Under the pieces are notes generated by a model. The model did not search any database. It was given only the letters and a program-made list of their open reading frames with translations, and had not been told where the DNA came from. The position numbers were made by a program, and so were the translations under genes. A DNA stretch of 7,228 nucleotides, from the IMG/VR virus record IMGVR_UViG_2778261341_000003; one strand, given 5' to 3'. Origin of the DNA: a virus. Lineage: Duplodnaviria > Heunggongvirae > Uroviricota > Caudoviricetes. Shown here piece by piece: positions 2,783 to 4,850 of this stretch. Every line of letters starts with the position of its first letter. Position 1 is the stretch's first letter.

Positions 2783-4069
2783 ATGAGTAACGCATCATAC
2801 CCGACAGGCGTTGAAAACCATGGCGGATCACTCCGCATATGGTTTCACTATAACGGCAAACGTGTCAGAGAAAACCTCGGTGTTCCTGACACCGCCAAAA
2901 ACCGGAAGATCGCAGGTGAACTTCGCACTTCCGTTTGTTTTGCAATCAGAATGGGGAGTTTCGACTACGCCGCGCAGTTCCCTAATTCCCCTAACCTGAA
3001 ACACTTTGGCTTGGGGAAAAGAGAGATAACAGTTAAGGCACTTTCGGAAAAATGGCTGGACCTTAAGAAAATAGAGATAGGAAGCAATGCATTCAGTCGG
3101 TATCAATCCGTAGTGAGAAACATGCTTCCTCGCATAGGGGAAAAACGTCTTGCTTCGTCTGTAACAAAGGAAGATTTACAGTTTATCAGGAAAGATTTGT
3201 TAACCGGGTATCATAATCTCTCTAATGGAAAAACAACGCCGGTTAAAGGGAGATCGGTAGTTACGGTTAATTACTACATGACGACAATTGCAGGAATGTT
3301 TCAATTTGCTGCTGATAACGGCTATATCGGGTCAAACCCATTTAACGGGCTGACACCATTAAAGAGATCAAGAACAGAGCCAGATCCGCTCACGCGTGAC
3401 GAATTTATTCGCTTTATTGATGCCTGTCACCATCAACAAACGAAAAACCTGTGGTCCTTAGCAGTATACACAGGCATTCGTCACGGTGAGCTAATAGCTC
3501 TCGCCTGGGAGGATATTGATTTAAAAGCTAAAACAATGACTATCCGTCGTAATTATACAAAACTCGGGGAGTTCACTCTACCAAAAACAGAGGCGGGAAC
3601 TGATCGTGTTATTCATCTTGTTCAACCAGCTGTTGATGCCCTGAAAAGCCAGGCTGAAATGACAAGGTTTGACCAGCAATATCAAATTGATGTCAAACTG
3701 CGGGAGTTCGGACGCAGCACAAGCCATGAATGCACGTTTGTTTTTAATCCGCAACTGGTGAAAAAATGCCAGCACGTCGGCCACCACTATAAAGCAGATT
3801 CCATCAGAGACTCCTGGGCATCTGCATTAAGGCGAGCAGGACTGCGGCACAGAAAAGCCTATCAGTCTAGGCATACTTATGCCTGCTGGGCATTATCGGC
3901 AGGAGCGAATCCAAGCTTCATAGCAAACCAAATGGGCCATGCAAATGCACAAATGGTATTCAACGTTTACGGTGCATGGATGGAAGATAACAATATCGGG
4001 CAAATAGAACTACTCAATAAGCAGTTGACAGAGAGTGTCCCATACATGCCCCATAGAGCCAGACTCTGA
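2783..4069 (+). CDS. int: phage tyrosine integrase (site-specific recombinase), 428 aa
   Basis: ATG 2783 with GGGAGG at 2773-2778. Catalytic signature present: TGIRHGE (Arg codon 3479-3481, residue 233), PKTEAG lysine, HxxR in ..RHRKAYQSRHTYA.., and tyrosine in ..MVFNVYGAW (TAC 3968-3970, residue 396). Ends next to the prophage/host junction. Confidence 0.93.
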   Translation: MSNASYPTGVENHGGSLRIWFHYNGKRVRENLGVPDTAKNRKIAGELRTSVCFAIRMGSFDYAAQFPNSPNLKHFGLGKREITVKALSEKWLDLKKIEIGSNAFSRYQSVVRNMLPRIGEKRLASSVTKEDLQFIRKDLLTGYHNLSNGKTTPVKGRSVVTVNYYMTTIAGMFQFAADNGYIGSNPFNGLTPLKRSRTEPDPLTRDEFIRFIDACHHQQTKNLWSLAVYTGIRHGELIALAWEDIDLKAKTMTIRRNYTKLGEFTLPKTEAGTDRVIHLVQPAVDALKSQAEMTRFDQQYQIDVKLREFGRSTSHECTFVFNPQLVKKCQHVGHHYKADSIRDSWASALRRAGLRHRKAYQSRHTYACWALSAGANPSFIANQMGHANAQMVFNVYGAWMEDNNIGQIELLNKQLTESVPYMPHRARL

Positions 4070-4850
4070 AATAATATCTTTAAATATCAGTTATTTTAAT
4101 GGTAGTTGCCGTCACATTAACTGCGTGGAGGGCAACACCACGCTTTACGCCCTGCCGAAACCCGAGGTTGTCCTGCGCTGGCGTGAACAGACCACAGATG
4201 ACTTCCGCTTCTGTTTTAAGTTTCCGGCGACCATTTCGCATCAGGCAGCATTACGACATTGCGATGATTTAGTGACTGAATTTTTGACCCGCATGTCACC
4301 GTTGGCTCCGCGCATTGGGCAATACTGGCTGCAACTGCCTGCCACATTCGGCCCACGGGAGCTGCCTGCGCTTTGGCATTTTCTCGATTCTCTCCCTGGC
4401 GAATTTAATTATGGTGTGGAAGTCCGCCATCCACAGTTTTTCGCCAAAGGGGAAGAGGAACAAACGCTTAATCGCGGTTTACATCAGCGCGGCGTTAATC
4501 GGGTGATTTTAGACAGCCGCCCGGTTCATGCAGCACGTCCACACAGTGAAGCTATTCGCGACGCTCAACGAAAAAAACCTAAAGTTCCGGTACATGCTGT
4601 ACTGACGGCGACAAATCCGCTGATCCGTTTTATCGGTAGTGATGATATGACGCAAAACCGGGAATTATTTCAGGTCTGGTTACAAAAATTAGCGCAGTGG
4701 CATCAGACCACTACGCCTTATCTTTTTTTACATACGCCAGACATTGCCCAGGCCCCGGAACTGGTACATACCCTGTGGGAAGACTTACGTAAAACGCTTC
4801 CAGAGATCGGAGCAGTTCCGGCTATTCCACAGCAATCTTCTCTTTTCTGA
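4035..4850 (+). CDS. yecE: YecE (DUF72 family), 5' end replaced by prophage sequence; probably disrupted
   Basis: From NCVEGNTTLYALPKPEVVLRWREQTTDDFRFCFKF.. onward it reads as YecE through the stop at 4848-4850. The first 30 or so residues (MSHTCPIEPDSEIISLNISYFNGSCRH) come from the int 3' end and att region and lack the conserved DUF72 N-terminal motif. The only upstream start is a GTG at 4035 with no well-spaced SD. Confidence 0.75.
   Translation: MSHTCPIEPDSEIISLNISYFNGSCRHINCVEGNTTLYALPKPEVVLRWREQTTDDFRFCFKFPATISHQAALRHCDDLVTEFLTRMSPLAPRIGQYWLQLPATFGPRELPALWHFLDSLPGEFNYGVEVRHPQFFAKGEEEQTLNRGLHQRGVNRVILDSRPVHAARPHSEAIRDAQRKKPKVPVHAVLTATNPLIRFIGSDDMTQNRELFQVWLQKLAQWHQTTTPYLFLHTPDIAQAPELVHTLWEDLRKTLPEIGAVPAIPQQSSLF
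4070..4130. other. prophage attachment junction (int-proximal att site), exact core not resolved
   Basis: AT-rich stretch aataatatctttaaatatcagttattttaatgg directly after the int stop, followed by sequence encoding the conserved YecE segment NCVEGNTTLYALPKPEVV. The core cannot be delimited without the other prophage end or an uninterrupted yecE. Confidence 0.4.

Follow-up and report, generated by a model that had tools for sequence, protein, structure and literature searches.

A lambda-like prophage in Escherichia coli yecE: the junction at its integrase end

The DNA stretch analyzed here, IMG/VR virus record IMGVR_UViG_2778261341_000003 (Caudoviricetes; 7,228 nucleotides, hereafter the window), almost certainly represents the int-side boundary of a lambda-like prophage that was inserted in the Escherichia coli yecE gene through site-specific recombination mediated by its integrase (Int). 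Positions 1-4116 correspond to the int-proximal end of a lambdoid prophage and, from about position 4117 onward, the sequence is that of the E. coli chromosome, starting at nucleotide 86 of yecE. A listing of open reading frames (ORFs) combined with Pfam scans revealed a plus-strand gene order of early genes, xis, int, an ORF of the DUF72 family, yecN, cmoA, and cmoB, with gene names confirmed by the RefSeq annotation of an identical stretch (Table 1).

The break point in yecE was located by aligning the window directly to an uninterrupted yecD-yecE locus (L002). This comparison distinguished three zones: no similarity to intact yecE upstream of position 4109, an imperfect match at 4109-4116, where the window reads CCGTCACA and intact yecE CCGCCACT, and identity or near-identity from 4117 onward. 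Over positions 4106-4116, 8 of the 11 nucleotides are identical. Colinearity with yecE is lost at nucleotides 86-96, within codons 29-32 (bounded elsewhere in the analysis as codons 27-32). At the protein level, residues 1-26 of YecE are replaced by 25 unrelated residues: the window ORF starts with VSHTCPIEPDSEIISLNISYFNGSC where YecE has MIYIGLPQWSHPKWVRLGITSLEEYA and is colinear thereafter, with an F29I substitution within the imperfect core. The host side thus consists of chromosomal yecE interrupted near nucleotides 86-96, followed by yecN, cmoA, and cmoB. An earlier, sequence-only reading of this DNA had proposed that the ORF lacks the N-terminal segment of yecE, replaced by about 30 phage-derived codons, and had named colinearity over the first 30 codons as the observation that would overturn this proposal. 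In the alignment to L002, colinearity between the ORF and intact yecE is absent for the first 26-29 codons, and the estimate was close to the 82 nucleotides (27 codons) of phage origin found here.

The same reading had described the missing part as a conserved DUF72 N-terminal segment, a view that is supported by structure and not by Pfam. The DUF72 match in the window ORF begins only at residue 25, and even for intact YecE the alignment to the Pfam model starts no earlier than residue 21, which makes this model uninformative as a gauge of a lost N-terminus. Residues 1-15 of native YecE align to the start, the first strand, of EF0366 (1vpy), a DUF72 protein of solved structure, and, since this alignment begins at residue 1, the lost segment belongs to the fold.

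The phage/host boundary coincides with published attachment (att) sites. A perfect 11-bp core, TTAACTGCGTG, was found at positions 4117-4127, equivalent to yecE nucleotides 86-96, and the 11-bp att annotated in phage phiP27 is the reverse complement of this core. The 19-bp "attR core" CCGTCACATTAACTGCGTG annotated in Shiga toxin (Stx) phage 297 (AJ431361) occurs exactly at 4109-4127, while the 21-bp "duplication due to insertion" of prophage Stx1_14040 (LC567819) occurs exactly at 4109-4129. The 19-bp core is single in the window and no match is expected in shuffled sequences, even at 3 mismatches; its occurrence at the boundary is therefore not a matter of chance. By the convention established for phage lambda, an int-adjacent junction is an attL; here, it is named attR after the database records, in which junctions are designated relative to yecE. 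Documentation of yecE as an integration site of Stx phages, also part of the sequence-only reading, is found in the literature: yecE is listed among the classical Stx-phage insertion sites (PMC8065619), and a collection of O145:H28 strains was reported to harbor 21-bp attL/R sequences in yecE, with prophages carrying stx1a (11 strains), stx2a (8), stx2d (1), or no stx gene (2) (PMC8112680).

The missing 5' end of yecE, together with a direct repeat of the core, had been predicted to lie at the distal end of the prophage. Both were found in ST130 (NZ_CP043478), the complete genome closest to the window, with 99.3% identity over 91% of its length. In this near-identical lysogen, the prophage upstream of the junction comprises head, tail, lysis, Q, nin, O/P, cI, N, and recombination genes, as well as stxA1a/stxB1a, and at its far end yecD is followed by a 96-nucleotide yecE 5' fragment annotated as "missing C-terminus". 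This fragment ends in ...GCCCGCCACTTTAACTGCGTG, after which phage DNA begins, and the prophage measures 49,675 bp from core to core. A reciprocal junction is also annotated in LC567819. Three-way comparison of attL, attB, and attR revealed a perfect 11-bp shared core, to the left of which attL has host-type and attR phage-type bases, which locates the exchange inside these 11 bp or at their edge. Regarding the frequency of such junctions, a 1-kb query spanning the boundary produced matches in all 5426 complete E. coli genomes, with the integrase part covered in 380 of them; in the remaining genomes the match starts only at window positions 4104-4109.

As in lambdoid phages of the yecE-integrating type, an arm-binding tyrosine integrase and an excisionase are encoded at the junction. 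Xis, labelled xisR in RefSeq, is identical to the phage 297 excisionase (84/84 residues), and Int shares 427 of its 428 residues with ST130 Int and 413 with phage 297 Int, with 74% identity to phiP27 Int. The motifs TGIRHGE, SRHTYA, MGH, and NVYG were recognized in Int and would be expected to serve in catalysis. The whole xis-int-att stretch exhibits about 96% nucleotide identity to phage 297 (AJ431361), to phage 258-320, and to some 20 O145:H28 "yecE" prophages of the Stx1a, Stx2a, Stx2d, and non-Stx types, and about 83% identity to yehV-type phages such as VT1-Sakai.

Between int and the core lies an AT-rich phage arm (4060-4108) that is unrelated to yecE and conserved in all yecE-type prophage junctions fetched. 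An attP site was reconstructed from the window arm and the distal arm of ST130. It contains a 21-bp direct repeat, AGTGTCCCATACATGCCCCAT, with one copy at -83 relative to the core (window 4034-4054) and the other at +123. The repeat consists of CCCAT-containing units with an 11-bp spacing, of which the int side has two and the distal side three. Candidate units of the distal arm extend from +123 to +158 (L004 16580-16615). Units fitting RTGYCCCAW are present in phiP27 at the same distances and with the same phasing, although the flanks diverge. This repeat layout is typical of arm-type sites for the N-terminal domain of an integrase, and these units may thus be bound by Int.

Integration can be envisaged as follows. 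A phage attP with the core region CCGTCACATTAACTGCGTGAC, bearing arm-type Int sites on both sides, would recombine with a bacterial attB inside yecE, CCGCCACTTTAACTGCGTGGA, which spans codons 27-33, strand exchange occurring within or beside the 11 bp common to both partners (4117-4127). This event would split yecE, its first 96 nucleotides staying beside yecD at the far end of the prophage and the remaining 723+ nucleotides being fused to phage DNA. The fusion would give rise to an accidental in-frame ORF devoid of a credible start or ribosome-binding site, and YecE would most likely not be made. Int and the adjacent excisionase should be able to reverse the reaction, restoring yecE.

Nothing was found that contradicts this scenario, but it has limits. 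The window contains only 4.1 kb of prophage, which bears on completeness, inducibility, and toxin content; the distal junction was seen in the related genome ST130, not in the genome from which the window derives; and read-through from int with initiation at GTG 4035 is formally possible.

An unlikely alternative is that the element integrated as described and has since decayed into a non-excisable remnant, now a cryptic island. The small amount of phage DNA visible is compatible with this possibility, many lambdoid prophages of E. coli are defective, with multiple inactivations in PPompW (PMC8112680), and in relatives the genes that immediately precede xis are frameshifted or partial. Yet the window has complete int and xis genes that closely match their counterparts in inducible phages, the upstream early genes are intact ORFs, and in the loci identical to the window no obvious gap interrupts the series of exo, bet, gam, N, cI, O, and P. 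The copy found in the window may well be competent for excision.

Integration in yecE also raises the question of whether a YecE protein is still produced. At the junction, a hybrid ORF (4035-4850) overlaps the 3' end of int by 35 nucleotides in another frame (int stop codon at 4067-4069). It does not encode an intact YecE/DUF72 protein with a full N-terminal strand and a normal start: no in-frame ATG occurs before residue 86, no Shine-Dalgarno (SD) sequence precedes GTG 4035, and the other in-frame start candidates are ATA, ATC, and ATT codons. The starts chosen by gene callers in different assemblies were 4035 (GTG), 4053 (ATA, RefSeq), 4074 (ATA), and 4086 (ATC). Since the hybrid ORF has neither ATG nor SD sequence and was given four different starts, the truncated yecE is probably inactive, in line with what the sequence-only reading had concluded from a GTG start with no SD. 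A plus-strand scan from int to yecE detected no promoter-like or terminator-like site, a result of little weight, since promoter counts were no higher than in shuffled sequences. In RefSeq, the product of window 4053-4850 is recorded as WP_077628759.1 (NZ_CP024289, NZ_CP043478), a 265-residue "DUF72 domain-containing protein" with an ATA start overlapping int; this entry is not marked as a pseudogene, and the 96-nucleotide 5' fragment at the far end of the prophage is marked as partial.

The opposite view, that the phage supplies a 5' segment with a working start and that an N-terminally swapped YecE is made through int read-through, from GTG 4035 or a nearby non-canonical codon, we consider highly improbable. 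The frame is indeed open from 4029 through the junction, the hybrid and native products are of near-equal length (271 and 272 residues), no terminator-like site separates int from the hybrid ORF, and RefSeq treats the hybrid as a normal coding sequence. Besides the missing ATG and SD signals, however, three of the four caller starts are rare ATA or ATC codons, the 25 replacement residues share nothing with YecE residues 1-26, and the native segment that they replace aligns to the first strand of the 1vpy structure. Furthermore, GTG 4035 is the first triplet of the first candidate arm unit, inside the 3' coding end of int, and belongs to a repeat also found in the non-coding distal arm, which argues for a role in recombination and not in translation. 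If such a protein were made, lysogeny would alter a conserved protein, whose function is unknown, instead of eliminating it.

Integration in a yecE-like attB within another prophage (attB-in-PP_1 of PPompW) instead of chromosomal yecE has a negligible probability and was ruled out: PPompW prophages do contain 100-bp attB copies derived from yecE that serve integrases of the same type, but the similarity of the PPompW copy to yecE is confined to about 100 bp, with 87% identity (PMC8112680), whereas the window has all the remaining 723 nucleotides of yecE, then yecN, cmoA, and cmoB, and is about 98-100% identical to the chromosome over this part.

Integrase-mediated insertion in chromosomal yecE is therefore the preferred interpretation of the window. 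The same phage end, with the same integrase, was also encountered at a different location. In a draft assembly (GCA_049894185.1, SPKV01000026.1; L012 6206-6228), sequences 99.98% identical to window 1-4119 are joined not to yecE but to the region immediately preceding clcA, within the small ORF yadX. The unoccupied clcA site (L017, about 1505-1527), TGCCGTCATCTTATTTGTATGAC, matches attP, TGCCGTCACATTAACTGCGTGAC, at 17 of 23 positions, with the exchange at "TTA". This site upstream of clcA appears to be a secondary attB. Junctions of this type were found in none of the 5426 complete E. coli genomes (0/5426), and a literature search for a clcA/hemL prophage site retrieved no paper.

A Shiga toxin-converting phage has its stxA/stxB operon downstream of the Q antiterminator gene. 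In related prophages, stx lies some 13-17 kb outside the window, on its phage side, and the caution expressed in the sequence-only reading, that the window does not show whether the phage carries stx, was justified. Both complete genomes examined with the same junction, ST130 and O178:H19 2012C-4431, carry stx1a. As O145:H28 yecE prophages bear stx1a, stx2a, stx2d, or none, a shared att site and integrase says nothing about cargo; moreover, these phages are mosaic and the early region of the window is unlike that of both stx1a relatives, so that their stx1a cannot be transferred to the window. Searching complete genomes with 13 kb of an identical draft locus identified no exact phage at yecE, related phages being found elsewhere with matches that end before the junction, and an exact-match scan of IMG/VR yielded two short fragments.

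The feature described here is already known: a lambdoid prophage at the canonical yecE att site, integrated via a phage 297/PPyecE-type integrase, which brings no new biology. Its significance lies mainly in annotation and typing. An occupied yecE is a recognized marker of possible Stx1a, Stx2a, Stx2d, or Stx2e prophages in Shiga toxin-producing E. coli, and the host strain merits a check for stx. In addition, a RefSeq "DUF72 domain-containing protein" at such junctions is a truncated fusion and not an intact gene.

The remainder of the window comprises early genes on the phage side and a chromosomal flank on the other (Table 1). The early gene order is also found 3' of exo/bet/gam in ST130 and in L007, one of two draft E. 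coli assemblies (L007 and L013) that are 100% identical to the window, this identity being limited to positions 1-7138. Contigs identical or nearly so to the window, JACINX010000027.1 (GCA_020145405.1; 48 kb) and ABKPGG010000001.1 (GCA_028606045.1), reach about 32 kb and about 14 kb deeper into the phage, respectively. The last 90 bases (7139-7228) are foreign to the usual cmoB-torZ spacer, and K-12-like genomes, like the two draft assemblies, match up to 7138 only. These bases are part of a multi-copy element found in 1678 of the 5426 genomes (median of 8 copies), and their counterpart in ST130 directly adjoins the gene of an IS110-family IS621 transposase. The window thus probably terminates within a copy of IS621 that was inserted 3' of cmoB. 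In L007, whose prophage is identical to the window, a gene of the HigB toxin family and two unannotated ORFs are located between cI and N (3614-4554), an arrangement suggestive of a moron-like insertion into the immunity region. Another assembly (GCA_040308945.1; L008 13105-13791) has a near-identical early module joined to a different 428-residue integrase beside mlrA (yehV); its 336-residue Ea22-like protein is identical to that of the window, and identity over window 1-4098 is only 93%. To judge from these sequences, this case illustrates the swapping of int/att modules among otherwise similar lambdoid phages.

Table 1. Coordinates of the features identified in the window (aa, amino acids; nt, nucleotides)
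Feature	Position	Strand	Basis or remark
Lambdoid early-left ("b2/ea"-type) genes	1..2400	+	Pfam matches
DUF1317	37-228	+	Pfam
DUF1382	201-392	+	Pfam
93-aa ORF	403-684	+	
TraR/DksA zinc finger	783-1004	+	Pfam
Ead/Ea22-like protein, 336 aa	1001-2011	+	Pfam
DUF4222	2060-2338	+	Pfam
xis, excisionase, DUF1233 family, 84 aa	2495..2749	+	Pfam PF06806, E=2e-29
int, tyrosine integrase, 428 aa, N-terminal arm-DNA-binding domain	2783..4069	+	PF12167 (Arm-DNA-bind_2) and PF00589 (Phage_integrase)
Candidate arm-type Int-binding units GTGTCCCAT (4035-4043) and ATGCCCCAT (4046-4054)	4034..4054	+	Inside int 3' coding end
Hybrid ORF, 271 aa, GTG start	4035..4850	+	82 nt of phage DNA fused in frame to yecE nt 86-819
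AT-rich phage arm between int and core	4060..4108	+	24.5% GC vs 48.7% for the whole window
att junction (int-proximal), 21-bp att CCGTCACATTAACTGCGTGGA	4109..4129	+	Exact match to published att sequences
yecN	4903-5298	+	RefSeq annotation of identical stretch and of a non-lysogen
cmoA	5339-6082	+	RefSeq annotation of identical stretch and of a non-lysogen
cmoB	6079-7050	+	RefSeq annotation of identical stretch and of a non-lysogen

The organization of the junction recalls that of phage lambda, with an arm-binding tyrosine integrase encoded beside attP, the int 3' end near the core, tandem repeats on both arms, an AT-rich arm, and an adjacent excisionase. In contrast to phage lambda, the core is a different one, the arm-site sequence differs, and attB lies in the 5' part of a gene instead of the intergenic gal-bio region; Xis also differs, being a member of the DUF1233 family. 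Among phages integrating in yecE, the Stx2 phage 297 (EH297, AJ431361) exhibits the same order of xis, int, att core, and truncated yecE, the core being placed identically with respect to int and yecE. The two diverge by about 4% at the nucleotide level in int and the arm, and the early genes upstream differ in the window, as expected of mosaic phages; phage 297 carries stx2, whereas the window is limited to the int end. The O145:H28 yecE prophages (Stx1_14040 and others, LC5678xx; Nakamura et al. 2021, PMC8112680), which are lambdoid long-tailed phages of about 46-50 kb, share the exact 21-bp att and an int-xis region with 96% identity, and differ from the window in their early and immunity regions. 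The Stx2e phage phiP27 (NC_003356) integrates in yecE with the 11-bp att TTAACTGCGTG and has homologous attP arms with RTGYCCCAW units at matching positions. Its Int has only 74% amino-acid identity, and the rest of its genome is unrelated, with a contractile-tail module. Two lambdoid Stx1a prophages at yecE likewise end in xis-int-yecE', that of ST130 (NZ_CP043478), 99.8% identical to window 1940-7228, and that of O178:H19 2012C-4431 (NZ_CP024289), whose junction is identical over window 3900-4900. Upstream of xis these prophages are partly unlike the window, the difference concerning the Ea22 region in ST130 and SPFH/DUF5406 genes in O178.
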